Positions 254 through 47,339 of a DNA stretch of 50,775 nucleotides are shown in pieces. Position 1 is the stretch's first letter; each line of letters starts with the position of its first letter. The DNA is taken from positions 1 to 50,775 of IMG/VR virus record IMGVR_UViG_3300031823_000009; one strand, given 5' to 3'. Origin of the DNA: a virus. Taxonomy: Duplodnaviria > Caudoviricetes. Made by a program: the position numbers and the translations under genes. The notes beneath the pieces were generated by a model. It saw only the letters and a list, made by a program, of their open reading frames with translations. It was not told where the DNA came from and ran no database searches.

Positions 254-292
254 TGTATGACACTATTACAAAGCGGCGTCAACCCTTATCGT
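254..292 (-). promoter_or_regulatory. Sigma70-like promoter for the nuclease/SSB/polymerase operon
   Basis: Minus strand TTGACG-N17-CATACA in the intergenic gap; overlaps a TGTATGACA motif. Confidence 0.5.
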
Positions 293-13647: not shown

Positions 13648-13692
13648 TGCGGATGCTTGGCAGCGCGCGTCGTTCGTGGTACGAATCAGTCC

Positions 13693-16600
13693 ATGAGCGA
13701 CGCATTCGGATCAAGCTACGGCCCCCCTCCTGCGCCCCAGCAACCTGCTTTTGGCAGTTCGTTCCTTGATTCGGCCATGCAAGCTGGGAAGTCGTTTCTG
13801 GGGGCATTCATGGGGCCGCAGTACAAGCCGACGAATCCAAATGCATCGCCGCTCGACCAATCGGCGGACCTGCTACAGCAGCGAATCAATCAGGCCAGTA
13901 GCATTGCTACGAATCCGTTTGCTCAGATGTGGTCGCCCGAAAAGGTGCAAGCCGCCCGAAATTTCGTGCCGCAGGCGACGGAGCAATTGCAGGCGATTAA
14001 CAATCAGCGCCAGCATCAAGCGGATATCAGGCAAGCGGCCATAAACAGGGGACTTAGAAATCCCGATCAATTCGGGCCTTCGGCAACCGACACCACGCTT
14101 AACGAAGAATCATTGCGTCAATGGAAGGACGAAGGCAATCCTGACGCTTACAAAGCATTACAAGGTGCAGGGGATGAGTGGGCAAACCGTGCAAATCTGT
14201 ACATGCCCGAGGCGATGGAAAAATTTTCTCAGCGCATCAATGCTGCACAAGACGCTATCAAGACTCTAGACGGCGCAGCCAACCCAAAGATGGGCGCACA
14301 AGCGTACGTTCAAAAACGGCAACAGGTTGTAGGTCAGCTCACACAGTTTGGAATCAAGGATAGCGATATTCCGCAGAAAGCAGACGGGTGGAGGTTAGCC
14401 AAGGGTCCGCTGCAGGCGCAGCTTAATCAAGCACTGGGCGTGTTGAACCAGTTCAACGCATCGCAAGACAGGCTAGGACAAGCCGTTCCTATCACGGATG
14501 ACAAGGTTGCATCGCGGATCGAAGGGTCGTTCATGTTTTCGAACACTGAACCGATACCTGGATTCAAGGCTGTAACGCTGCCCGGGAAAGGCGGCGTATC
14601 TGGCGCCATGGGGCCGCCCGGGTCGTTCGATACGACCAAGCGCGGCATGGGCGGTCCCGGCGGATGGTCGAATGCGCCGCCTGCACAGATCAAAACCGTA
14701 CAAGACCAGTTAGGTACGAAAGAAGTAGAAGGCGCCATCAATAAGTACAAGAGTGCGCGTGATTTCTACGATACGACGCATGATGACAAGCTGTACACGT
14801 CTGCAGCTGGCATCGCGATGATTCAGGACAAGACGGGTGGCGTGCTGCGCAACGTCTCGGAGGAGGCGAAAGGTTCGGGCACCATCGGTTATACGAAGAT
14901 GCTTGAACGCCAATTTGGTTCAGTCGAAGGCGCGCGCAACGAACTGGCCAAGGAATCTTCGGCGCTTAAAGAGTGGCTGGGCAGACCTGCGGATAAGCGT
15001 CTTTCGCCACCTTCGATCGAGGGCTTCAAATACATTTCGGAATTCGAACACGGTATGGCGTTGAAGGAATTGAATGATCGTCTTGGACAGCCATTGGAGA
15101 CGGCGGGCCGTTACGGTATGAAGCTGCAAAACCTTGGGCTCGACAAGGAAGTCACGAGTCAGCCCGATCTGTACAACACCTGGAACAACGCGAGGATTGC
15201 CGGCAACAAAGAAATCGACGGCTATCCAATGATACGGATAGACGATCAGCGGGTCATGTTACCGAAAAACAGCCACGTGCCCGGTGCGCAGGTCATGCGG
15301 CTGGACCACACTGACAACAGCGGAACTGTTCCCGGTGTACCGTCTAGCTCAGTGCCCCCGCCCGCCTCTGGCCCTGGCACTCCGCAGGGCGTACCCAATG
15401 CGGGCGGCGGTGCTGGGCCTGCCCCCTCTCCTTCCGGTACACCTAATGTGGGTGGCAGCCCAACGGCTCGGCCCCTTGGCGGTTCTCCGGTTCCCCCTGC
15501 CGCTCCTGCGGGTATTCCTAGCAGCCCGGTGGCTCCGGTTCATGGCGACCCCAATAACCCGCCGGGCCGTTGGGGCCTGACACCGGGGATGAAGCTCGAC
15601 AATCCCCAGGCCGTAGTAGCTTTGGCGAATCGCGAAATTCAGTTGGAAAGCGGCTTTCAGCCGAAGCAACGTACGGGGTCATATGTCGGGCTCGGGCAGT
15701 GGTCGCAGGAGGAAATGCAACGTCACGGCATTACGGACCCTGATGACTTGGAGCAAAACCGCACTGCGCTGCAGGCCGACATACGGACGCGGGCAGACAA
15801 GCTGCAGCGTGATGGGCTGCCCGTCACTGCGGCAAACGTCTACCTGATGCATCAGCAGGGCGAAGCCGGCTTAGAAGCGCACTTGCGCAATCCGGACGGC
15901 CTTGCTTGGCAAAATTTGAAGCCGTATTTCCGTTCAGACGCAATTGCGAAGCAGGCCGTTTGGGGCAACATGACGCCAGAAATGCGTGCTCAGTTCACAG
16001 CGCGTGGTGGTGTCAATGGCGTGACTTCCGGTGATTTCACGCGGCTGTGGGATGCGCGGACCAACGGCACGGACGGCGCCGGCTACACTATGGCGGGTCG
16101 GGGCAACATGCCACTCGCAATTCCCGAAAGCGCAAGTTCGGGGTTGGCAGCGCGCGGTCGCACTGCGCCTCGTGCGACGCAGGAACCTACGTCGCAAAGT
16201 AGGGCGGGCATGCTCGGGACAACGGGTCCTTTGATAGGTTCGTTGATTAATCGTGCCATGGAATTGGAAGGTCCGGCGATCGGTGGCACGGTTGGCGGTC
16301 TTGTCGGTGGCGCGCTTGGCGGGCCTGCGGGAATGCTTGGTGGCGGCGCGGCTGGCGGCGCGGCTGGGCAGGCCGCGAAGGATTGGCTGTCAGGGAATCC
16401 ACAGCAACCCGGTCAGATCGTCAAGCAAGGTGCCTTGCAGGGTGTTCTTGGTGTGGCGCCGGCAGGACGGCCGATTGTTGGCGCATTAGCGCGTATGGCT
16501 GGCGCGGGGGGTGTAGAAGCTGCTTCAAAATACGCGGAAGGAGGTGATCGGGCTGACGTTGTGGGAGCGGGGGTCGGCGGGGCGGCGTCTGCGGGGGCAA

Positions 16601-18123
16601 GCGAATTGTTCGGCCGCGCACTTGGCATGGTTACGCATAAAGTTTTTAGATTGTTCGGTCCCGACGCGCAAGAAGCGTTTCGTGGTGCCGCTGCAGATTT
16701 GCACGAGGCGAATGAGACGCTGAGGACCGAACCGGAGAAGTTGCCGGGCATTGCCGGTGGTGCCGAGACAGCAAATCCGAAATACGAGGCGGCGAAGGAT
16801 GCGAAGGAAAAAGCGGAATCGACGATCAAGGAAATGATTCCGACTGCAAAACCAGACGAAGTCGCGTACGCTCATAAGGTGAGTGCCGGTCCCGTGCCGA
16901 CGCCGGCTGCCGTTGCTAAGGCGGGATTTCCTGGTGCTAAGGAAAAGGCAGAACTCAGTGCCGCCTACGAGCAACTTCATGGCGAGGTAGGCGCAACTGG
17001 CGTACCGCCACCGATATCGCCGCCGAAGCTTCCGGATGGTCCGATTTCGGTTGTCGATAGCGGAAAAGTGGGGGAGCGATTCCGGGATACGGCTAAACGC
17101 GCGGAAGCTGTAGCAACGGCGCCGCGTTTCGATCCAGAGACGAAATCGCGTGATCTTCAAAAAGTTCGTTCATCGTTACTTGAAGCCGAGCAAAATGCTT
17201 TGACAAGTAATGAGTCTGATCGGGCGCAAACAGCTAAGGATATGCGCACGCTTGCCGATACCATACGTGTACAGCAAGAGAGGCTTGTGGATCACGTACT
17301 TGGGCCGGATGCGGCCAAACCATGGATTCAACGGCTTCGAACGATCGATTATCGTTATCGGCAATTGATGGATGCAACAAACGGCGGTAATTTGGAAGCT
17401 GCAGCCGGCCTTAAGGGCGAAGCTGGTCGTGAGGTTGATCGCAAGTTTCGCGCTTTTGCGCAGAATGATCCTGCAGCGGTTGCGGCTTGGAATCACATGC
17501 GCGTAAAGGCAGGCAATCCAGATGCTACTGAAAAATCTATTTTTGGCCAAATCTCACTGGAAAATTTTCCGGTTGTTGGAAAGTACCTTGCTTCGGGGGC
17601 ATCAATACTAAATCTTCGTAAATGGATGCGAGATAGGGCGGCGGGCAGTCCGGCACAATTCGGAGACTTCGTTCCCGGATATAACAATTTGAGTGGTCCT
17701 AAATCCGCACGCGATATTGCAGGAAGCAAATACGCTCGTTTCGGAGCTGACAGCGGTTGGAATCCGTTAGCAGCATCGCCTGCGCAAGCCGGTGAGATCA
17801 TACCTACGTCCCGGACGCCACTCAGTGCGGGCTCGGGCGGCGGTGTTCCAGCAAACAGTATCGGTCTGCCATCACAAGGAGCGCAGACAGTCATTTCACC
17901 TTCGTCTCTAAATGTGCAGGCAGCAATAAACAGAGCTAGTGCATATGTTAAAGGCGACAACAATGCCGGTGCCATGCAGAGAAACATCATGATCATGGAG
18001 CGCGGCGGCCCCATGGCCGAAAAGGTGGCCGATTTCGTAATGAGTACTTTCTCGCAGCATCCGTTCGAACGTACTGGCATGGTCCCTTCGGGACGTACTA
18101 TTCAGGGTGATTCTGTACGTTAA
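13693..18123 (+). CDS. Large internal virion (DNA ejection) protein with lytic transglycosylase-like domain
   Basis: About 1476 aa, A/G/Q-rich helical; IQLESG...YVGLGQW...VYLMHQQG lysozyme-fold motifs; Gly-rich GGLVGGALGG segment; Pro-rich linker. Confidence 0.75.
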   Translation: MSDAFGSSYGPPPAPQQPAFGSSFLDSAMQAGKSFLGAFMGPQYKPTNPNASPLDQSADLLQQRINQASSIATNPFAQMWSPEKVQAARNFVPQATEQLQAINNQRQHQADIRQAAINRGLRNPDQFGPSATDTTLNEESLRQWKDEGNPDAYKALQGAGDEWANRANLYMPEAMEKFSQRINAAQDAIKTLDGAANPKMGAQAYVQKRQQVVGQLTQFGIKDSDIPQKADGWRLAKGPLQAQLNQALGVLNQFNASQDRLGQAVPITDDKVASRIEGSFMFSNTEPIPGFKAVTLPGKGGVSGAMGPPGSFDTTKRGMGGPGGWSNAPPAQIKTVQDQLGTKEVEGAINKYKSARDFYDTTHDDKLYTSAAGIAMIQDKTGGVLRNVSEEAKGSGTIGYTKMLERQFGSVEGARNELAKESSALKEWLGRPADKRLSPPSIEGFKYISEFEHGMALKELNDRLGQPLETAGRYGMKLQNLGLDKEVTSQPDLYNTWNNARIAGNKEIDGYPMIRIDDQRVMLPKNSHVPGAQVMRLDHTDNSGTVPGVPSSSVPPPASGPGTPQGVPNAGGGAGPAPSPSGTPNVGGSPTARPLGGSPVPPAAPAGIPSSPVAPVHGDPNNPPGRWGLTPGMKLDNPQAVVALANREIQLESGFQPKQRTGSYVGLGQWSQEEMQRHGITDPDDLEQNRTALQADIRTRADKLQRDGLPVTAANVYLMHQQGEAGLEAHLRNPDGLAWQNLKPYFRSDAIAKQAVWGNMTPEMRAQFTARGGVNGVTSGDFTRLWDARTNGTDGAGYTMAGRGNMPLAIPESASSGLAARGRTAPRATQEPTSQSRAGMLGTTGPLIGSLINRAMELEGPAIGGTVGGLVGGALGGPAGMLGGGAAGGAAGQAAKDWLSGNPQQPGQIVKQGALQGVLGVAPAGRPIVGALARMAGAGGVEAASKYAEGGDRADVVGAGVGGAASAGASELFGRALGMVTHKVFRLFGPDAQEAFRGAAADLHEANETLRTEPEKLPGIAGGAETANPKYEAAKDAKEKAESTIKEMIPTAKPDEVAYAHKVSAGPVPTPAAVAKAGFPGAKEKAELSAAYEQLHGEVGATGVPPPISPPKLPDGPISVVDSGKVGERFRDTAKRAEAVATAPRFDPETKSRDLQKVRSSLLEAEQNALTSNESDRAQTAKDMRTLADTIRVQQERLVDHVLGPDAAKPWIQRLRTIDYRYRQLMDATNGGNLEAAAGLKGEAGREVDRKFRAFAQNDPAAVAAWNHMRVKAGNPDATEKSIFGQISLENFPVVGKYLASGASILNLRKWMRDRAAGSPAQFGDFVPGYNNLSGPKSARDIAGSKYARFGADSGWNPLAASPAQAGEIIPTSRTPLSAGSGGGVPANSIGLPSQGAQTVISPSSLNVQAAINRASAYVKGDNNAGAMQRNIMIMERGGPMAEKVADFVMSTFSQHPFERTGMVPSGRTIQGDSVR

Positions 18124-18139
18124 AGGCGGGACAGAGAAA

Positions 18140-19510
18140 ATGACCAACGAAGACATTATTGCGAATTTGCATAGCCAACTCGACGAGGTTTCTAATTCAC
18201 CTGCGCCCGTCGCTTCCAATGATGCTTCGGCTGGGCCTGCAGCTCCGCAGTCTGACATGCCTACGCCTGCGCAAGTGGGTATTCAGAGGCCGCTTCCCGT
18301 TGATCAAGCTTTGCGTCAGGGGGGCGTTGGTGCTTTCAAGACGCTTGCTCCGCGTTTGTACGACTACATGACGCAGCCTAATCCGCAACCACCATCGATG
18401 ACGCCCAACAGAGCTGGCAAAGTGGCACCTTCCGATTACGATCCGAGAACGATGGGAGCTTTGGAAGATCTACGGAACTTGGCTCTTGATGCCATGCCTG
18501 AAGGAGGCTGGGCGGCTCGTGCTATGGGCGCTGTTGCGGGGGCCGTTAGTCCTTCGGCCGAGGCTGCCCAGCAACAGCAGCGCACCGCGGCGGTCCCTGC
18601 GCAGGCCTCACGGCCGCCTCCCGGTCAGCCTGGACCGACGGTTGTGTCCGCCGCTCCGCAGCCACAAGGTCCGCCAGGACCGATGCCGACGGCTGCTGTT
18701 CCGCAGCCCAGCATACGGCCGGATTTCACGCCTCAGGATATGGATCGGCTGAGTCAGCTCGGCACTGAAATGAGTGATCTCAATAAAAAGATAGACTCGG
18801 TTGGAAAACGGACTGATATTGGACCCGGTGGCAAGCGTGCACAAATCGATCCGCTTCAGACGCAAATCAATGCTAAACAGAGTGAGATTGACCGGATTCG
18901 TGACAATGTACGCCAGGCGCAGGCTGCTTTCGATTTGGCTGGGCAGCCGATCGGCGTTCGTAATCCTCCAGCGGTGGCGGTGGGGCGTGGTATTGGTCTC
19001 GGTCTTGGCGCTGGTACTGGTCTTTTGAAAGGATACAGCGGTAAAGGTCAATTCGGCCGCACTGTGCTATACGGGGCTGCCGAGGGTGCCGCTGGTGTTA
19101 CAGTACCTAATCTTATGGACCTTGGAGCCGCTCCCGGAACGCCGGCACGCGAAACAGCGGAACGCAATCTTGCCTTCATTCATGACCCTACAAGTATCGC
19201 GAATTGGGATTATGCTCGGCGTGTTATTGCGCCTGAAATGATAGGCGGTGGGCTGCTAGGAATTGCGGGTTACGGCTTCGGCAGTGCGATTAATTCGGCT
19301 AGGAATCGACGATCGGCGCCATCTGTTCCTGCCGCTCCTGCAGAGCTACCCGCTTCGAGCTTGCCCAGCGGCGGTTATGCGTGGCCGACCGATCCGGAAG
19401 CACTCAAGAGCTTGCAATCGGTTGCCTACAAGACACCTTCGGGGCAATGGCGTGTCTATGTTGAGGGTAAGAATCGACGGTTGCCGAAAGGGCTTGAACC
19501 GCGTCCGTAG
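18140..19510 (+). CDS. Probable internal virion/ejection protein
   Basis: P/A/Q-rich, coiled coil, glycine-zipper segments; follows the large ejection protein. Confidence 0.6.
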   Translation: MTNEDIIANLHSQLDEVSNSPAPVASNDASAGPAAPQSDMPTPAQVGIQRPLPVDQALRQGGVGAFKTLAPRLYDYMTQPNPQPPSMTPNRAGKVAPSDYDPRTMGALEDLRNLALDAMPEGGWAARAMGAVAGAVSPSAEAAQQQQRTAAVPAQASRPPPGQPGPTVVSAAPQPQGPPGPMPTAAVPQPSIRPDFTPQDMDRLSQLGTEMSDLNKKIDSVGKRTDIGPGGKRAQIDPLQTQINAKQSEIDRIRDNVRQAQAAFDLAGQPIGVRNPPAVAVGRGIGLGLGAGTGLLKGYSGKGQFGRTVLYGAAEGAAGVTVPNLMDLGAAPGTPARETAERNLAFIHDPTSIANWDYARRVIAPEMIGGGLLGIAGYGFGSAINSARNRRSAPSVPAAPAELPASSLPSGGYAWPTDPEALKSLQSVAYKTPSGQWRVYVEGKNRRLPKGLEPRP

Positions 19511-19519
19511 GAATTAAAA

Positions 19520-19828
19520 ATGCTCCTGCCGTGGCTCGAATGGCCTCAGGTTGCCAAGACGCCACGCGAATTGATGCTTGCGCGGCTTCGTGATGGCGTG
19601 CCGCCGGAGCTTGCAGCGCGTGCCGCCGGCATTACTATGGATCAACTGAAAGACGATAAGGAAGTGGATATGGCGCTCGCAGAGGGCGAGATATTGCTTT
19701 TTGAGCGCGCACGTGATAGTGGCGTGACCGGTGTTGTACGGGCAGCCATGCGGCGCGAAGCTAACTCGTGGATGCCAAAGGCCGAAGTCACAGTTGGGAT
19801 GACTTTGGAGGATTATTTGAGGGATTAA
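19520..19828 (+). CDS. Putative terminase small subunit (HTH)
   Basis: LRDGVPPELAARAAGIT HTH followed by helical ALAEGE...AAMRRE; size and pattern typical of TerS. Confidence 0.45.
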   Translation: MLLPWLEWPQVAKTPRELMLARLRDGVPPELAARAAGITMDQLKDDKEVDMALAEGEILLFERARDSGVTGVVRAAMRREANSWMPKAEVTVGMTLEDYLRD

Positions 19829-20007
19829 TACCAACCCCATATTGCTTCTTTTACCCACCAACCATATAATATGCAGACTGTCGCTAAGGAGATTAGACGT
19901 ATAGTAATTCTATGCCACCAAATGCACGCCCACAGTGCGAAAAAAGTTCCGAATACTAAGCACTCGATTTGATGGTTCCAAAAACAACCGTCGGGACATA
20001 AGTTCAT
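19825..20007 (-). CDS. Small membrane protein
   Basis: Two hydrophobic Trp-rich segments; GGAG RBS; ATGA-coupled to 20004..20150. Confidence 0.6.
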   Translation of the reverse strand: MNLCPDGCFWNHQIECLVFGTFFALWACIWWHRITIRLISLATVCILYGWWVKEAIWGWY

Positions 20008-20150
20008 TTTGTGTTCTCCAATTCTATGACTGGCGTACGTCGCAGAAAGTCCGGAATATCAAGTGGATGATTTTGACCGGGCCATAATTCTGTTACTGAG
20101 TCTTTGATTAGTTCTGGCCGTACAGGTACGGTTTCCCACGGCATTTTCAT
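20004..20150 (-). CDS. 48-aa protein with FtsZ C-terminal-core-like motif (unlisted)
   Basis: AAGGAA RBS; MKMPWETVPVRPELIKDSVTELWPGQNHPLDIPDFLRRTPVIELENTK; stop overlaps the next ATG. Confidence 0.7.
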   Translation of the reverse strand: MKMPWETVPVRPELIKDSVTELWPGQNHPLDIPDFLRRTPVIELENTK

Positions 20151-20179
20151 GGAATGTGTTCCTTGATTTTGTGTGTACG

Positions 20180-20280
20180 TGTGTACACTGTTTTGTTATG
20201 TAATGCAACCCCCTAAATGTATGACAGATTTGCCGCCGACACGCAAGCTATTGACGTATGACAATTTGTGCTGCTACACT
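20180..20280. promoter_or_regulatory. Divergent promoter region
   Basis: Minus strand TTGCAT-N17-TACACA; plus strand TTGACG-N18-TACACT (20251-20280); two GTATGACA..ATTTG repeats. Confidence 0.55.
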
Positions 20281-20320
20281 TTAGGAGACTGATTCGTTCC
20301 TCTAAAAGAAGGGCCGGCTT

Positions 20321-21061
20321 ATGGTCCAAATTGTTAATCAATCCACCCTCAGCATTGGCGGTTTTCGGCATTATTCGGGCCTCTTGCCCTCCATACCGGG
20401 TGATGGCAGTGCGCAAGCTCAAGCGTCCGTGCGGCCTTTCCATCTTGCTCCGACGAATGCGCTTGCGATCTTCCGCGGTGACATTGTCGTCTTCAATTCC
20501 GCTACGATCGGCGTGCAGGGGGCTGGCGATCTTCCGGTCAATATTGGTCCTCCATCCGCTACAAGCCTTGTAATTGGCAATGGTGGCGGTTCGCTGCTTG
20601 GCAATGCTTCGATGGCGGCGAACGTTTCGCGGTGGGTTCCGGGCGACACCACTAGTGTTATTGCTGGCGTCGTGGTGGGCTTCGGTCCGATCACGCTCTA
20701 CATGGCAAAAAACGGCTTTCAGTACGTTCCTGCGTCTACCGAAGCGTGGGTTTTTGTCGAAACTGATCCGCAGGTCATGATGACTGCGACGGTGCCCACC
20801 GTACCCGCCACTGCGTTCAACCTTGACCTGAATAGCGGCGTTGATGTGAAGGCGAATGCCGCTTTCCAGAGCACGAGATTCGGCATTTCGGGAATGTCGC
20901 TTGATCCGACGACGATCCAAACGACTTCGACGCTGCCGCTTCGCTTTGTTAATTCGTCCGAGCAAATCGGAAACGATCCGACGGCGGCCGGCTTTGTTGC
21001 GCAAGTCACGTTCAACATGTCGCGCCATTACAAAGGCGGTGCCGGCTTCACTGCGGATTGA
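20321..21061 (+). CDS. Probable capsid decoration/cement-type structural protein
   Basis: GGFR..., AIFRGDIV, GVVVGF, YVPAST...V.TDP pattern recalled from proteins normally adjacent to gpT-like capsid genes. Confidence 0.55.
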   Translation: MVQIVNQSTLSIGGFRHYSGLLPSIPGDGSAQAQASVRPFHLAPTNALAIFRGDIVVFNSATIGVQGAGDLPVNIGPPSATSLVIGNGGGSLLGNASMAANVSRWVPGDTTSVIAGVVVGFGPITLYMAKNGFQYVPASTEAWVFVETDPQVMMTATVPTVPATAFNLDLNSGVDVKANAAFQSTRFGISGMSLDPTTIQTTSTLPLRFVNSSEQIGNDPTAAGFVAQVTFNMSRHYKGGAGFTAD

Positions 21062-21070
21062 GGAGCAAAT

Positions 21071-21640
21071 ATGTCACGTTTTCTCGCGATTTTTCTTGCG
21101 GCGGTTCTGTCGGTCGGCGGCGCAGTTGCGCAGACCGTCGTTTCACAACCGGTGTTCGTTCCATCGAAACAGTGGATCGATTTGGGCAACGGCCCGCTCG
21201 ATATTCAGCCGATTGAGGGTAACGGCGATCTTTATTCGTCATTTGGATCCGGACAAGGCAGTACGTCTGGGTCAACTACCAGTTTGGTGTTGACGACAAC
21301 GCCTTTGGTGTCGCCGTGCATAGGCTGTGTCATTTCCGGCCCCGGCATTACGTCCGGAACTACCGTCTCTGCATTCACGCTTGGAACATCGATCGCGCTT
21401 TCAACGTCCATGTCCGTGACGCCGGTATCATTGGTTTCGTGGGGAGCTGCGTGTCCCGCGGCAACTGCGGCCAACGTTCCTGGCGTCTTTCCAAATGGGG
21501 TTGCGTCGCTGTCACCGCCGGCTCCTGCTCGTTCAAGCATTGGCGGAACGTATCCGTTCTATACGCAAGCCCGTGTTTGTGCGTACGGTGCTGCGCAGAA
21601 CGGTTTTACGCTTCTTTATTTCGCGATCGGTGCTCATTGA
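21071..21640 (+). CDS. Secreted Ser/Thr-rich protein
   Basis: GAGGAG RBS; signal peptide MSRFLAIFLAAVLSVGGAVA-Q; GSTSGSTTS tract; 4 Cys. Confidence 0.75.
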   Translation: MSRFLAIFLAAVLSVGGAVAQTVVSQPVFVPSKQWIDLGNGPLDIQPIEGNGDLYSSFGSGQGSTSGSTTSLVLTTTPLVSPCIGCVISGPGITSGTTVSAFTLGTSIALSTSMSVTPVSLVSWGAACPAATAANVPGVFPNGVASLSPPAPARSSIGGTYPFYTQARVCAYGAAQNGFTLLYFAIGAH

Positions 21641-21641
21641 A

Positions 21642-22730
21642 ATGCTGTGGATCGGGCTCGCCGTATCGCTTTGCTACGTTCCGGGTTTGACCGGAGCGTA
21701 CATCGCGACACAGTGGCCTTTGTTGGCTGTGATTCTGCCTTTCGGGTTGTTGTGGAAAGGGCCGTTCACAATTTTTCATTTGCTCGGACTTATCTTCGTT
21801 GACTATGCGGCAGTGCACATACTTTGGAGTCCTAATCCGTACGGTTCTGTCTATGGCGTGTGGCTGCTTGCCATTTCGGCGTTGGCTGTGTGGTTCGGAA
21901 CTGCCTTGGAAGATACGCGTGAGCTGTACAAAGGCTTAGCTATTGGCGCTACATTGTCGAGCTTCGTTGCCGTGCTGCAGTTTTTCGGTATTGGCGTTGT
22001 TCCCGTTACATCGACAATGCCCGCCGGTCTGTACGTCAACAGCGTACAGCAAGGTACTGTGCTTGCCCTTGTAGCGGTCGCGTTGATGACGGAGCGTATG
22101 TGGTTGTGGATTCCGTCATTGCTGCCCGGCATTTGGCTTTCGCATTCCCGTGGTGGTGCTATTGTTTTGTTGATAGGATTGCTTTGTTGCTGTTCACGTC
22201 GTTTGTGGATACCGGTAGGCGTTCTCGCGATGGCGGCTTCGATTTACCTATTTTATCCGCTTTCGCCGTCCGACAGTCAACGTCTGTACATTTGGCACGT
22301 CGCATGGGATAACTTGACATTGTTCGGCTGGGGTGCCGGAGCTTTCTTCAGTGCAGTTCTCGTGCATGACGGCGTCACTTTGTTTCCGGAGTACGCGCAT
22401 AATGACTTTTTGCAGTTCGCCTTCGAATTCGGTATCGGCGCGATTCTTCCTGCGATTATCATTGGTTATGCAGCATGGCGTACGGATGTTAAGGAATGGC
22501 CTGTCGTATTGGCATTCTGTGCGGCAGCGTGTTTTTCAATGCCGCTCTCCATGCCGATCGCTGCGTTTCTTTCTTTGGTCGCTGTGGGGCGTGTTCTTCG
22601 CGCTCATGGCCTACATGGCAGCGAGCGCAACTATCGCGGATATGATTTCTTATCGTGGGATGACACGTGCCGACTGGCAATTCGCGGCCGAGATCTTTCC
22701 ATGGCACCGCAGCATTCAGCAAAAGGCTAA
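21642..22730 (+). CDS. O-antigen ligase / O-oligosaccharyltransferase family (Wzy_C, WaaL/PglL-like) membrane protein
   Basis: Polytopic hydrophobic profile; GLYVNS, SHSRGG, QRLYIW, FGWGAG, YAHNDFLQFAFEFGIG are Wzy_C signature motifs. Confidence 0.85.
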   Translation: MLWIGLAVSLCYVPGLTGAYIATQWPLLAVILPFGLLWKGPFTIFHLLGLIFVDYAAVHILWSPNPYGSVYGVWLLAISALAVWFGTALEDTRELYKGLAIGATLSSFVAVLQFFGIGVVPVTSTMPAGLYVNSVQQGTVLALVAVALMTERMWLWIPSLLPGIWLSHSRGGAIVLLIGLLCCCSRRLWIPVGVLAMAASIYLFYPLSPSDSQRLYIWHVAWDNLTLFGWGAGAFFSAVLVHDGVTLFPEYAHNDFLQFAFEFGIGAILPAIIIGYAAWRTDVKEWPVVLAFCAAACFSMPLSMPIAAFLSLVAVGRVLRAHGLHGSERNYRGYDFLSWDDTCRLAIRGRDLSMAPQHSAKG

Positions 22731-37050: not shown

Positions 37051-38851
37051 TGCCCGCCTCCTGCATCATTGTCTGCACGGCTTGTTCGAGTTGCGCCATT
37101 TGTAACATGGCAATTTGGCTGTTGATCATGCCACCGCCGGCTTCAACTAAATTCTTAAGTGCTTGCGTAAGCTGTACAGCGACGGCACCTGTGACCTTTA
37201 TATTTTCAGTTTTTTGCTTCATTAACTTTATTGCAGCTTCGGCTTTTTCCTTAGGAGTAGCCTGCGGCATTGGCGGCTGTCCGATCAGCTTTTCCGGATT
37301 TGGGAGTCTCAGTGTTTTATACAGACGCATGCGTACTTCGCGCCAGTCCGTCAATTGATCTTTCATAAGTTCCATATAGATGCCGGCAAGTGCACTGCGC
37401 TGCATTTCGGTTGCAAGCTGTGGGTCTGCCGTTACTGCTATGTTGTCGGCACCAGAAACTTGTATGTTTTCGGGCAGAACGTCGTAAGCGCTGGCCATTT
37501 CGACGAATGACCGGAATTCCTGCGTCATCGATGCGACGAGACGGCGGTGCACTGCGGATTGAACTTGCGCACCGTTATCTATCACGCCGCGGGCCATGGT
37601 CGCAGTCATTGACGCAGGTGCATTTTCTAGTAGATTGATTGTTCCGGCGAGACGGTCGCCCAGCGTCATGATCTTGTCGAGAACCTGTACGGAACCGGCT
37701 GAAACCGATTTCATCGGCCATGGCGAGAACATCTTTTCGAGCGGCATCCCGTCTGTAGGTAATGAGGTAAATCGGTTGCCTTTTACTTCGATTTTGTCCG
37801 GCAAGCCAAACGAACTGCCGCCGACAACGCCGCCGTTTTCACTTTCGCTTTTAGCTGTATCGGAAATTGACGCAAGCAGCCGGTTGGCTGTGTTCTCGAC
37901 GCGGGCGAGCAACTTGCCGAATCCCATGGGTAGAAATCCGCCTTTGGGATCAGGAAGGAACTTATACGGATGGAACCGGATAACTGGATTGAAGTATAGC
38001 GTATCGTCTGTATTCACTACTGTTTTTGCAGACCATCGTGGTTCGATTTTGACGACTTCCGGAAAATCGTCACGTGATATTATGATTGTCCACGGCTCCT
38101 CAATGCCGTCGTCGTCTAGGTCTAGCCACGCATCGCAATCGTAAAACCGTTTCGGCGCCTGTGGATCGTTATCGTGAAAACCAGGTTCGTAGTCAACCCA
38201 GCGCTTGCGTTCGATCGATCGATTGATCTCGTACGGATACCGCTCGAATTGGTCCGTAATTCGCGGTGCCCGGTTGATGATACGCAGGTATTTCACATTT
38301 ACGATTACGTCCTTACATGTACGGAAAGCCGTGTGAAATATTTCGTCCTCGCGATCGAATGATCGTTTACGCCATGCCAGTCCGGTGACGGACATGTGTA
38401 CGACAAGCGGATCAGTATCAGTCACCCAATTTGGGTCATTTGTACGGAGCTGACTGGATACCCACGCCGCAACAGCTTCGCTTCCCGGTTCGGTTGCTCT
38501 TGCCAGGTCGGGCTCGCCCAGCAAAGCGTCCGTGGCGCGCGCTGAAAACTGCACAACTGCCGTCAGCGTCATTTCTGTGGCTGGCGGTCCTTCCTCATTC
38601 GAACCTTCTTGCTCGCGGTCCTGAGGCTTTGCGTCATTTTCCTGTGCGGTGACGGTGTTCAAATAACCTTCTGCCTCACTGAGCCAATCGCTCATGGATT
38701 GCTCGTCGATGCCGATCAACATGATCAATTCGTCGGCAAGTAATCGGCGTTCGTCTTTTGACAATTTTTCGGCCAAATTGCCAAATTTCTCAGGCTTATC
38801 AATATCAAACTTAATGATCGGAAGGTTACGCATAAGGCTGCTGTCATACAT
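36896..38851 (-). CDS. Portal protein
   Basis: 651 aa; D.QSMSDW, AVVQFSARA, GLAWRK, YKFLP...GFG, Q-rich C-terminal barrel. Confidence 0.85.
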   Translation of the reverse strand: MYDSSLMRNLPIIKFDIDKPEKFGNLAEKLSKDERRLLADELIMLIGIDEQSMSDWLSEAEGYLNTVTAQENDAKPQDREQEGSNEEGPPATEMTLTAVVQFSARATDALLGEPDLARATEPGSEAVAAWVSSQLRTNDPNWVTDTDPLVVHMSVTGLAWRKRSFDREDEIFHTAFRTCKDVIVNVKYLRIINRAPRITDQFERYPYEINRSIERKRWVDYEPGFHDNDPQAPKRFYDCDAWLDLDDDGIEEPWTIIISRDDFPEVVKIEPRWSAKTVVNTDDTLYFNPVIRFHPYKFLPDPKGGFLPMGFGKLLARVENTANRLLASISDTAKSESENGGVVGGSSFGLPDKIEVKGNRFTSLPTDGMPLEKMFSPWPMKSVSAGSVQVLDKIMTLGDRLAGTINLLENAPASMTATMARGVIDNGAQVQSAVHRRLVASMTQEFRSFVEMASAYDVLPENIQVSGADNIAVTADPQLATEMQRSALAGIYMELMKDQLTDWREVRMRLYKTLRLPNPEKLIGQPPMPQATPKEKAEAAIKLMKQKTENIKVTGAVAVQLTQALKNLVEAGGGMINSQIAMLQMAQLEQAVQTMMQEAGNAGTSIDGMAQQPGNQGAPQLPTSPNQNSDGGILGRSPGGPGIAGPGGSVQ

Positions 38852-44501: not shown

Positions 44502-44570
44502 GGTTTTTTCGCGCGAATCGTGGTAACGTGCTCATAGCAAATTTTGTCATACACTGCAAGGGGCATCGCA

Positions 44571-45381: not shown

Positions 45382-47339
45382 TTACATACCCTTTCTGACT
45401 CATACCCGTCACAACCAAGAAGTAGCCCTGCGGTCCAATGCCGAGGTCTTTTCATGATCTCTCGTATTTGTGCAGAACGCTCTTTCGCCACATATGCGGA
45501 AGCAAGGGCGAGAATACTGTCGTATACGTCCAGCAAGAGCACAACATCTGGCAACTCCTTTTCAATGTCATCTTCTGCGGCTGTTACTAAATCACGCGTC
45601 ATGCACTGACAAGAAATTTCTAATAAGGAGCCCCCGAACGCTTTTTGGCGGTACATAGCGCCAAATTTGGCGCGGAAGAAGGCCATTTCGCCGGTGTATG
45701 TTATATGCGCTGAGTAGTGCGGCACGGCGCGCCTGGATGGAAGTAGCATCCATACAGTTCCATACGCGTCCTTTTGAAATGCAACTTTGCCGGCATGGAA
45801 TATACGGCCGGGAGCTTCATAGATTGCAAATTTAAAAGCGTCGGCTAGATCATACCAAAGTTGTACCAGTAGCGGATTTCCTTTTCTGTAGCCGTCTATA
45901 TCTGTACGTGCTTTTGTTTCAGTTAATTCGTGTTTTTTCAGTCCGTTTTCGGCCACAGTTTTGATTAAATACGCTAAATATGTTTTCCATCCTAATTGAT
46001 AATTTCCACCGAGTGTCACGCTTTTGAATGTTTGACGTTCCTTGGGATGCGTTGATTTCGTTGCGTTTTGCGGCAATCCTAGACAGTTTATTGCATTGTA
46101 CATGTACAAATCTTTGCCGGTGGCTAAAATGTTAAGGCGATCAGTATCTCCGGCCTGCCATAAAGCGATACGTAGTTCGGCTTGTTCGAGATCATTATCC
46201 ATTATTGTCCAGCCCGAGGGTGCTACAATGCATCCACGAAGACAATCTTTCAGAGCTGTATTGTCATACTGAAAGCCTTGCTTCAGCCCAGCAATTACGC
46301 TATCGATCGTCGGACGGCCTTCTTTGCCATCATATCTGCCAGAAGGCCGAGCGATGTTGAACATGTTGGTGCCTTCTGACGTACCACGACCGGATCGCGC
46401 ACCAAAATAACGTGTTGCGTCTTTATACCATCCGCCAACATGTCGATTTAGAAGTGACTGTGCTTTGAGCGGCGCAGAGCCACCTTCTACTTGCAAGAGT
46501 TCAAGTATAAGCCGCACGTCCGGATGCAGATCTTCATCGCTTAATTTTTCGGCTACTACGTGCTTTTGTGTATTCTCCAGTCCAGCGGCGCGGTTACCGC
46601 CATTGCACCATTCGATAATTTTTTGCCGTTGCGACAGCTTGGTCACGGCATTGTTCGTTAGCTCCATTAATTTTATCGTAGTTTCATGTTCAATTGCTTG
46701 GCGACGCAGTGCAATTGCAGTTACCAACTGAATATCTATTGGCAACCCGATTTCGTTTTTGCGCCATGTACGTTCGAATATTAATCGTTCGTACGGCGGA
46801 AGCGGCGGCAACCGTTTGTCTAGCTCTTCTAAGCAATACGTATCCTGAACGTTGTATTCTAGCAACTTAGCAAATATATCTGCGTCCTCGTTAAATGCGC
46901 CATTTCTTTGCGGTCTACATGTCGCATTTACTAATGCTCGTCCACGTGGGTCTTTTCCACTGATACCCAATGTCATACATATTGCGTCCAAGCCCCCCGG
47001 TAGTGCAAGACTCTGAGCCCTCGCCATTGTACAATCGATCTTGTACAGCGGAATCTCGACAAATGGATTTTGATGACGCAGTACGTTCACATCAAAATTA
47101 GCGTTGTGCGCTACGAATCGTGTACAAATCCGAATATCGTCATAAAGTACATGAATTAGATGCGTGCCAAGGAAAGGGTGCACTGTGCATGCAGTTTTTA
47201 ATTGACCTTGAAAACGCCATACGGCTGTTGTGACCTGTGTCGAAGCGTCCGCTGCGTAACGCCTTGCGCCAGCCGCTTTAAGATCAACACGGCTTCGCGT
47301 TTCAACATCGACTAGGAGGTCGTTAGAATGGAGCATCAT
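45378..47339 (-). CDS. polA: Family A DNA polymerase with 3'-5' exonuclease
   Basis: Exo DVETRS, AHNANFD, YNVQD; motif A DLEQAELR; motif B RQTFKSVTLGGNY; motif C LDVYDS. Confidence 0.9.
   Translation of the reverse strand: MMLHSNDLLVDVETRSRVDLKAAGARRYAADASTQVTTAVWRFQGQLKTACTVHPFLGTHLIHVLYDDIRICTRFVAHNANFDVNVLRHQNPFVEIPLYKIDCTMARAQSLALPGGLDAICMTLGISGKDPRGRALVNATCRPQRNGAFNEDADIFAKLLEYNVQDTYCLEELDKRLPPLPPYERLIFERTWRKNEIGLPIDIQLVTAIALRRQAIEHETTIKLMELTNNAVTKLSQRQKIIEWCNGGNRAAGLENTQKHVVAEKLSDEDLHPDVRLILELLQVEGGSAPLKAQSLLNRHVGGWYKDATRYFGARSGRGTSEGTNMFNIARPSGRYDGKEGRPTIDSVIAGLKQGFQYDNTALKDCLRGCIVAPSGWTIMDNDLEQAELRIALWQAGDTDRLNILATGKDLYMYNAINCLGLPQNATKSTHPKERQTFKSVTLGGNYQLGWKTYLAYLIKTVAENGLKKHELTETKARTDIDGYRKGNPLLVQLWYDLADAFKFAIYEAPGRIFHAGKVAFQKDAYGTVWMLLPSRRAVPHYSAHITYTGEMAFFRAKFGAMYRQKAFGGSLLEISCQCMTRDLVTAAEDDIEKELPDVVLLLDVYDSILALASAYVAKERSAQIREIMKRPRHWTAGLLLGCDGYESERVCK

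Follow-up and report, generated by a model that had tools for sequence, protein, structure and literature searches.

The phage genome described here encodes, on its minus strand, a 48-aa protein containing the nonapeptide LDIPDFLRR, which resembles the C-terminal peptide of the bacterial cell-division protein FtsZ. The locus raises the question of whether a phage has copied the FtsZ tail and what such a copy would do in an infected cell. In the following, the window denotes the whole stretch of DNA that was analyzed, a virus record that is complete at 50,775 bp and carries direct terminal repeats (measured length 127 bp).

The small gene and its genomic setting

The phage encodes a DEAD/ResIII helicase, a Prim-Pol/AAA_25 primase-helicase, a DUF2800/PD-(D/E)XK nuclease, a large terminase, a head-closure-like protein and a head protease/major head-like protein, together with a family-A DNA polymerase whose match lies below the Pfam cut-off; tRNA genes were looked for in the genome and none was found. 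Its nearest cultured phages are only ~26% identical in the DNA polymerase, and homologs of the terminase number 360 at E <= 1e-10, the best 120 listed being 69-95% identical and in many cases located on contigs of 50-55 kb. With so many terminase homologs and such distant cultured phages, the phage belongs to an abundant, uncultured group. Two large proteins encoded just upstream of the cassette that holds the small gene, one of 1488 aa (13657-18123, +) and one of 467 aa (18107-19510, +), are rich in Gly/Ala/Pro low-complexity stretches, have no convincing Pfam or PHROG match and presumably function in the virion or in ejection. A 411-aa polytopic membrane protein is also encoded in the window (21495-22730, +), with a sub-threshold match to the O-antigen ligase family Wzy_C (26.9 bits against a cut-off of 31.7).

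The small gene and a 60-aa ORF form a minus-strand cassette between two conserved plus-strand genes (Table 1). The initial annotation, made from the sequence alone, had described a minus-strand ORF with a ribosome-binding site and LDIPDFLRR, coupled by ATGA to a small membrane protein. This layout was recovered, with 48 aa read from an ATG, AAGGA placed 9 nt before it, and the stop of the small gene overlapping the start of the next ORF. The promoter proposed in the same annotation stands only in part: a TTGCGT-17-CATACA arrangement with TG can be picked out by eye, but it is weak, and a consensus promoter scan of the minus strand over 19400..20500 found none. The weak candidate sits within an over-represented 8-mer, TGTCATAC, which occurs in 7 copies in the window against 1.0 expected (7 was not reached by any shuffle) and may belong to a phage promoter or serve as an operator. 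Its sites are 255-262, 20219-20226, 20256-20263, 38842-38849, 44545-44552, 46262-46269 and 46971-46978; at the copy at 255-262 (-), TTGACG lies ahead at a spacing like that of a promoter, and a GGAG-ATG start comes after. The intergenic blocks around the candidate promoter are kept in the related contigs L003, L004, L006 and L007. The small gene runs against the direction of the virion genes, which hints at a promoter of its own.

Table 1. Coordinates of the small gene, its internal motifs, its upstream signals and its neighbors in the window
Feature	Position	Strand	Basis
Small gene, 48 aa, member of family A2	20004..20150	-	ATG-start ORF; homologs; purifying selection; no Pfam or PHROG family
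FtsZ-tail-like motif LDIPDFLRR, residues 30-38	20037..20063	-	Unique in six frames; family conservation; hhalign against FtsZ tails
Second conserved module RPELIKDSVTELWPGQ, residues 11-26 (family consensus RPELxKDPxTGLYPGQ)	20073..20120	-	A2 alignment
N-terminal PWE motif, residues 4-6	20133..20141	-	PW-x within the first 12 residues in 59/78 proteins; common to A7
Ribosome-binding site AAGGA, 9 nt before ATG	20160..20164	-	Read directly
Perfect palindrome GTGTAC-ACGT-GTACAC in the 5' leader of the small gene	20173..20188	.	Listed as terminator-like hairpin on the + strand
Weak candidate promoter TTGCGT (20241..20246), 17 nt, CATACA (20218..20223), TG before CATACA	20218..20246	-	By eye
Downstream 60-aa hydrophobic ORF (putative gene), start overlapping the small-gene stop (ATGA)	19825..20007	-	One hydrophobic stretch
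Conserved 102-aa gene converging on the cassette (left anchor)	19520..19828	+	Homologs with 51-94% identity in 19/28 related loci
Conserved 246-aa gene diverging from the cassette (right anchor)	20321..21061	+	28 related loci, 62-88% identity

The small gene is real and under purifying selection. Relatives lie at the same position in six related viral contigs (L002-L007), and over a 28-codon core shared by the window and L003-L007, pS is 0.52-0.95 and pN is 0.00-0.29; L006 and L007 differ in this core by 13 synonymous and 0 non-synonymous changes. The ORF is short and matches no Pfam or PHROG family, but the probability that 20004..20150 is not a functional gene is minute in view of a pN/pS of 0.00-0.35 at nearly saturated synonymous sites, 75 motif-bearing homologs, the conserved position in related phages and the ribosome-binding site.

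The protein family and its likeness to the FtsZ tail

Family A2 was delineated from the window protein (P0010), which forms its first row. A word-indexed profile search of 5.8 billion proteins yielded 40 small homologs, and an exhaustive HMM search of 1.84 billion representatives yielded 50 at E <= 0.001, with P0010 itself at E 6.1e-18 and 1.5e-18, respectively. Because 47 of these 50 homologs are 111 aa or shorter, the protein is a stand-alone peptide and no domain of a larger protein. As defined here, an A2 member is a protein of ~45-110 aa with an N-terminal PWE, the module RPELxKDPxTGLYPGQ and the peptide DIPxFL[R/K]R, all of which are present in the window protein. Across the family the modules follow in the order M-x-x-P-W-E, RPELxKDPxTGLYPGQ and [D/G]-[I/L/V]-P-x-F-L-[R/K]-R; some members add RMPDGxVxIGLENxK, of which VIELENTK in the window is a remnant, and some carry a C-terminal PPWAxxS. 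The PWE and RPELxKDPxTGLYPGQ modules, which the initial annotation had missed, have no counterpart in FtsZ.

Conservation of the motif in homologs, proposed beforehand as a check on the idea of a copied FtsZ tail, is pronounced: [D/G]-[I/L/V]-P-x-F-L-[R/K] is kept in 75 of the 78 collected family proteins. Among these 75, P and F are present in all (75 each), L in 72, R/K in 68, I in 58 and D in 54, the acidic residue before I/L-P being replaced by G in 21. The pattern G[LMFI][YWLF][PA]G[QE] is found in 74 of the 78. In one member (P0011) the peptide appears twice, as DDIPGFL near the N-terminus and as DDIPGFLRR at the usual place. Two of the three motif-less proteins look truncated, and the third, P0074, is a repeat protein that is probably unrelated to the family; it comprises 237 aa with seven tandem copies of ..NLQTGMWPGQQDTD.., which are similar to the family's GLWPGQ module, and lacks the tail-like peptide.

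The 48-aa protein is not hydrophobic (Kyte-Doolittle maximum -0.13), and its AF2 monomer, modeled with the family alignment, is mostly coil (pLDDT 75.5, pTM 0.39); residues 4-6 and 34-36 (D-F-L) form short helical turns, and confidence is highest at residues 11-30 (mean pLDDT 81-89). Searches for established relatives gave little: Pfam and PHROGs returned no family for it at E <= 0.1, 50,697 phage records returned only two chance matches (E = 10), and neither the A2 profile against PDB sequences nor the AF2 monomer against the PDB by Foldseek returned a match at E <= 10. A lead from the ESM Atlas (cluster 0.81, 17% of members with FtsZ_C) was flagged as often chance, all leads being below 0.9, and was not counted.

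The extreme C-terminus of alphaproteobacterial FtsZ, LDIPAFLRRQAN, matches the window motif. In Bradyrhizobium sp. TZ2, the FtsZ protein (Pfam Tubulin and FtsZ_C) ends in ...DDHLDIPAFLRRQAN, and the FtsA of this strain is Pfam-confirmed as well; 8 of 9 residues over LDIPxFLRR are identical between this FtsZ and PLDIPDFLRR of the window. The likeness claimed in the initial annotation was borne out by profile comparison, in which hhalign aligned A2 with 40 FtsZ tails at Prob 92.2% and E 5.9e-7, placing PLDIPDFLRRT on HLDIPAFLRRQ, whereas the negative control of A2 against FtsA gave Prob 0.2%. The A2-FtsZ score of 35.8 compares with a maximum of 17.8 from column shuffles, 0 of 200 of which reached the observed value. 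A relaxed pattern, [DE][IVL]Px[FYW][LIM][RK], has a single occurrence in the six frames of the window. DNA coding for DIPxFLRR occurs once per genome, and always as DIPAFLRR, in five of five alphaproteobacterial genomes (4.4-8 Mb), at sites presumed to be ftsZ; the reversed-pattern control occurs 0 times in the same five. A degenerate pattern for DIPAFLRRQAN matched at least 120 stretches, almost all labelled Alphaproteobacteria. Among the matches listed, the motif-bearing ORFs have the motif at their C-terminal end, except for L082, where four residues follow, and an FtsA homolog is present in 59 of the loci listed.

LDIPDFLRR therefore contains the core of an FtsZ-type docking motif, D-I-P-x-F-L-[R/K]-[R/K], in a protein that is not an FtsZ: the 48-aa protein has no Pfam family, and FtsZ_C was found nowhere in the phage. 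The phage peptide also differs from the tail in several respects. It is internal, with 10 residues following it in the window and 0-76 across the family (0-5 in 10 of 75), and in 65 of 75 family proteins P is followed by D or G, where alphaproteobacterial FtsZ has A. Three other identities for the protein were considered and dropped: mimicry of the SSB tail (acidic-I-P-F), which needs a free C-terminal Phe, because the motif is internal here; a Tat signal, because the residues come in the wrong order and hydrophobicity is lacking; and a RiPP precursor, because no modification enzyme lies nearby.

Related cassettes, the sister family and the host

The surroundings of the small gene were compared in 28 loci fetched around homologs of the 246-aa gene. 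Nineteen of them also hold the 102-aa anchor, with a cassette of 377-1914 bp between both genes, and omission of three loci that repeat the coordinates and matches of another (L139, L153 and L160) left 16 cassettes. A small minus-strand ORF with [D/E/G]-[I/L/V]-P-x-x-[L/I]-[R/K/L]-R, usually after PWE, is found in all 16. In 11 of the 16, the protein belongs to a sister family, A7, with the consensus MTxPWE..DIPxxLRRDANNRAPWM...WVPPWAAxS, which is syntenic with the small gene in related phages and carries LDIPDWLRRDAN(N). The A7 and A2 profiles are related (Prob 93.6%), and both families combine PWE with a [D/E]-[I/L]-P-x-x-[L/I]-[R/K]-R peptide in the same cassette. Unlike A2, A7 lacks the GLYPGQ module, continues after the peptide as DANNRAP[FW]M and usually ends in PPWAxxS, and its F position is variable (W, C, A, V, M). 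The alignment of the A7 peptide LDIPDWLRRDAN with LDIPAFLRRQAN extends through the final FtsZ residue, with Prob 94.7% and agreement at 10 of 12 positions, and 0 of 200 shuffles come near its score. At E <= 0.01, A7 has 81 homologs. An A2 or A7 member is present in 19 of the 28 related loci, a count in which L154 is new and the A7 hits in the loci used to build the A7 profile arise by construction; the other nine have none within the 2.5 kb fetched, one of the nine being without its upstream flank.

The same peptide and PWE recur in four proteins of a different kind (P0276 and P0280-P0282; 156-179 aa). These Lys/Ala-rich proteins are headed by [L/G]DIPxFL[K/L]RDANNRA.FM, after which a long Lys/Ala/Pro-rich stretch leads to a conserved C-terminal domain; the module is all that they have in common with the small proteins, to which they are otherwise unrelated. 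No Pfam family was found for P0280 or P0282, P0282 was not matched in the phage or plasmid collections, and the small protein of L136 was not matched in the phage collection. The tail-like peptide is common to all 17 aligned cassette proteins, and since it is present across the cassettes and the lysine-rich proteins while other modules and neighbors vary, it is the constant element.

The 60-aa ORF coupled to the small gene had been put forward as a membrane partner, a proposal that is not supported in that form: a search of viral_contigs found no relative of this ORF, and the cassette neighbors differ between related phages. Its single hydrophobic stretch of 19 residues reaches a Kyte-Doolittle maximum of 1.68, just above the 1.6 threshold, and its only Pfam match, to OapA_N, is below the cut-off. 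A crude hydrophobicity scan found at least one hydrophobic ORF of >= 30 aa in 13 of the 16 cassettes, these being predicted ORFs that are not homologous to that of the window. A separate observation concerns six of the 16 cassettes (L135, L136, L140, L144, L149 and L159), in which a recurring small protein that is absent from the window is encoded upstream of the tail-mimic gene. It has two hydrophobic stretches, begins MHFL/MHVL...G..A.AFGE and may be a membrane partner or holin-like.

The host of the phage is probably an alphaproteobacterium, as judged from a Bradyrhizobium family member, a GcrA-like gene in the cassette of a relative and the match to the FtsZ ending RRQAN. A Bradyrhizobium assembly is the sole named source of an A2 family member. 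In the related phage L149, the variable cassette that contains the small gene also holds a gene (1462-1848, -) resembling the GcrA family of cell-cycle regulators (PF07750, 33.1 bits against a cut-off of 26.9); GcrA-like matches were found in two of five related phage records, one of them above the cut-off, and none in the window. The G+C content of the window is 52%, and that of Bradyrhizobium is higher. The terminase homologs come from metagenomes or nameless sources, except for one MAG labelled Planctomycetota. Searches of genome_contigs with A3, the Wzy-like protein and the terminase found no relatives; the A2 profile was not found in 401 genomes from the same family as Bradyrhizobium sp. 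TZ2, nor was a coding pattern for IPxFL[KR]RDANN in 401 genomes from the same class.

Possible roles of the small protein

Known readers of the FtsZ tail provide a frame for the function of the small protein. Excerpts of PMC4117426 describe the E. coli tail, DYLDIPAFLRKQAD, as binding FtsA, ZipA, MinC, ClpX, ZapD and SlmA, with I374 and L378 critical, and a 14-residue tail peptide as sufficient for specific but weak binding, the Kd of the free peptide for SlmA being 81 uM. For ZipA, the Kd given in excerpts of PMC11831152 is about 20-35 uM, and F377 is named as one of the main contacts in E. coli. [quoted passage not shown]

The phage peptide shares with the FtsZ C-terminal peptide (CTP/CCTP) the core L-D-I-P-x-F-L-R-R, including the I and the L that are critical in E. 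coli; in the phage protein, as in FtsZ, the core appears to be preceded by a flexible, often acidic stretch. Unlike the FtsZ tail, it lacks a tubulin-like GTPase and is hence not multivalent; its internal position (10 residues follow), its D or G in place of A and its flanking modules are likewise foreign to FtsZ. A free tail peptide of 30-50 residues that acts by competitive inhibition has a precedent in the dominant-negative E. coli FtsZ C-terminal fragments of Savinov et al., as cited in excerpts of PMC11831152. Those are laboratory fragments of the host's own FtsZ, whereas the phage gene is natural and evolves independently.

The small protein probably jams or hijacks the host cell-division machinery. 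In the reading preferred here, which falls only a little short of an even chance, it is a soluble decoy of the FtsZ-tail readers of an alphaproteobacterial host, with FtsA as the first candidate, because a peptide retaining L, D, I, P, F, L, R and R would be expected to compete for the same sites. The protein would occupy the FtsZ-tail-binding site of FtsA and possibly also those of MinC, ClpX or FzlC; with these sites taken, the Z ring would lose its link to the membrane and to its regulators, and host division would be delayed or blocked during infection. We infer that the protein binds partners of FtsZ, and likewise which partner this is and how host division is affected. A complex prediction of Bradyrhizobium FtsA (A4) with A2, run without folded controls, gave ipSAE values of 0.16 and 0.24 against a mark of 0.32 and counts neither for nor against the pairing. 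Since free monovalent tail peptides bind weakly, a decoy would need high expression or extra contacts, and the conserved PWE and RPELxKDPxTGLYPGQ, together with RDANNRAPFM and PPWAxxS of the relatives, point to at least one further partner.

The replacement of the acidic residue by G, the D or G in place of A, the variable F of A7, the internal position of the motif, the weak binding expected of such a peptide and the modules foreign to FtsZ keep two other explanations alive. One of these, rated as rather unlikely, treats the peptide as a docking module for some other partner, either a phage protein (for example, as an assembly signal) or a host hub beyond the FtsZ-tail readers, with the likeness to FtsZ being incidental. 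It would account for the A7 module running well past the end of FtsZ (DIPxxLRRDANNRAP[FW]M), for the appearance of this extended module at the head of the unrelated P0276 and P0280-P0282, much like a portable tag, for an F position that is not fixed in A7, and for the remaining A2 modules that lack an FtsZ counterpart. However, LDIPDWLRRDAN and LDIPAFLRRQAN agree at 10 of 12 positions as far as the last residue of FtsZ, with 0 of 200 shuffles near the score, and the DIPxFLRR coding pattern occurs nowhere else in the five genomes; chance resemblance is therefore unlikely, and a host reader of the peptide is already known.

The other explanation, which is judged improbable, is that the protein serves as an adaptor and not as an inhibitor, its FtsZ-like peptide docking on FtsA or the divisome at the membrane while PWE, GLYPGQ and the PPWAxxS of the relatives bring in or remove a second component. 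Several independently conserved short modules in a mostly coil model (pLDDT 75.5, pTM 0.39), the gain and loss of these modules between subfamilies around a tail-like peptide that stays, and the recurrence of small hydrophobic ORFs in 13 of 16 cassettes are consistent with such a role, but the neighbors are not homologous between phages and the hydrophobic ORFs counted are predicted only. Far less probable is a peptide read by a protease (ClpXP), whether as a degron that times the lifetime of the small protein or as a competitive protector of FtsZ. ClpX is listed as reading the E. coli FtsZ tail in excerpts of PMC4117426; nothing in the protein, however, is specific to a protease, and the motif is internal in most members.

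In a further, tentative and rather doubtful proposal, the FtsZ tail peptide would be a portable short linear motif that phages of alphaproteobacteria graft onto unrelated proteins, namely the 48-aa peptide, A7 and the lysine-rich, DNA-binding-like proteins, as a bacterial counterpart to the motif mimicry of viruses that infect eukaryotes. Rather than simple inhibitors, the small proteins would on this view act as adaptors with several motifs, linking FtsA or the divisome to a second host target via PWE, GLYPGQ and PPWA.

Phages stop host division with small proteins, and lambda Kil, T7 Gp0.4, Rac KilR, DicB and SPO1 Gp56 are small phage-encoded inhibitors that either target FtsZ directly or work through ZipA, MinC or FtsL. 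The protein studied here resembles them as a small phage protein, encoded by an accessory gene, that is presumed to stop host division. To our knowledge, none of the five copies the FtsZ tail, and the described phage division inhibitors act on FtsZ or its regulators by folds of their own. The 48-aa protein matched no family in Pfam and PHROGs (0 families at E <= 0.1), which sets it apart from the described phage division inhibitors so far as these libraries model them. A search of openly accessible full-text papers, without their supplements, turned up no account of phage mimicry of the FtsZ tail.

Small phage proteins that target host division are a known theme, whereas copying of the FtsZ tail would be a new mechanism. 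If true, the protein would compete at the hub where FtsA, ZipA, MinC, ClpX, ZapD and SlmA read FtsZ, and it would represent a ready-made, evolution-tuned inhibitor of an antibiotic-target interface. Mimicry of short linear motifs is well known in viruses of eukaryotes; the small phage protein, if this reading is true, would mean that phages use it as well.
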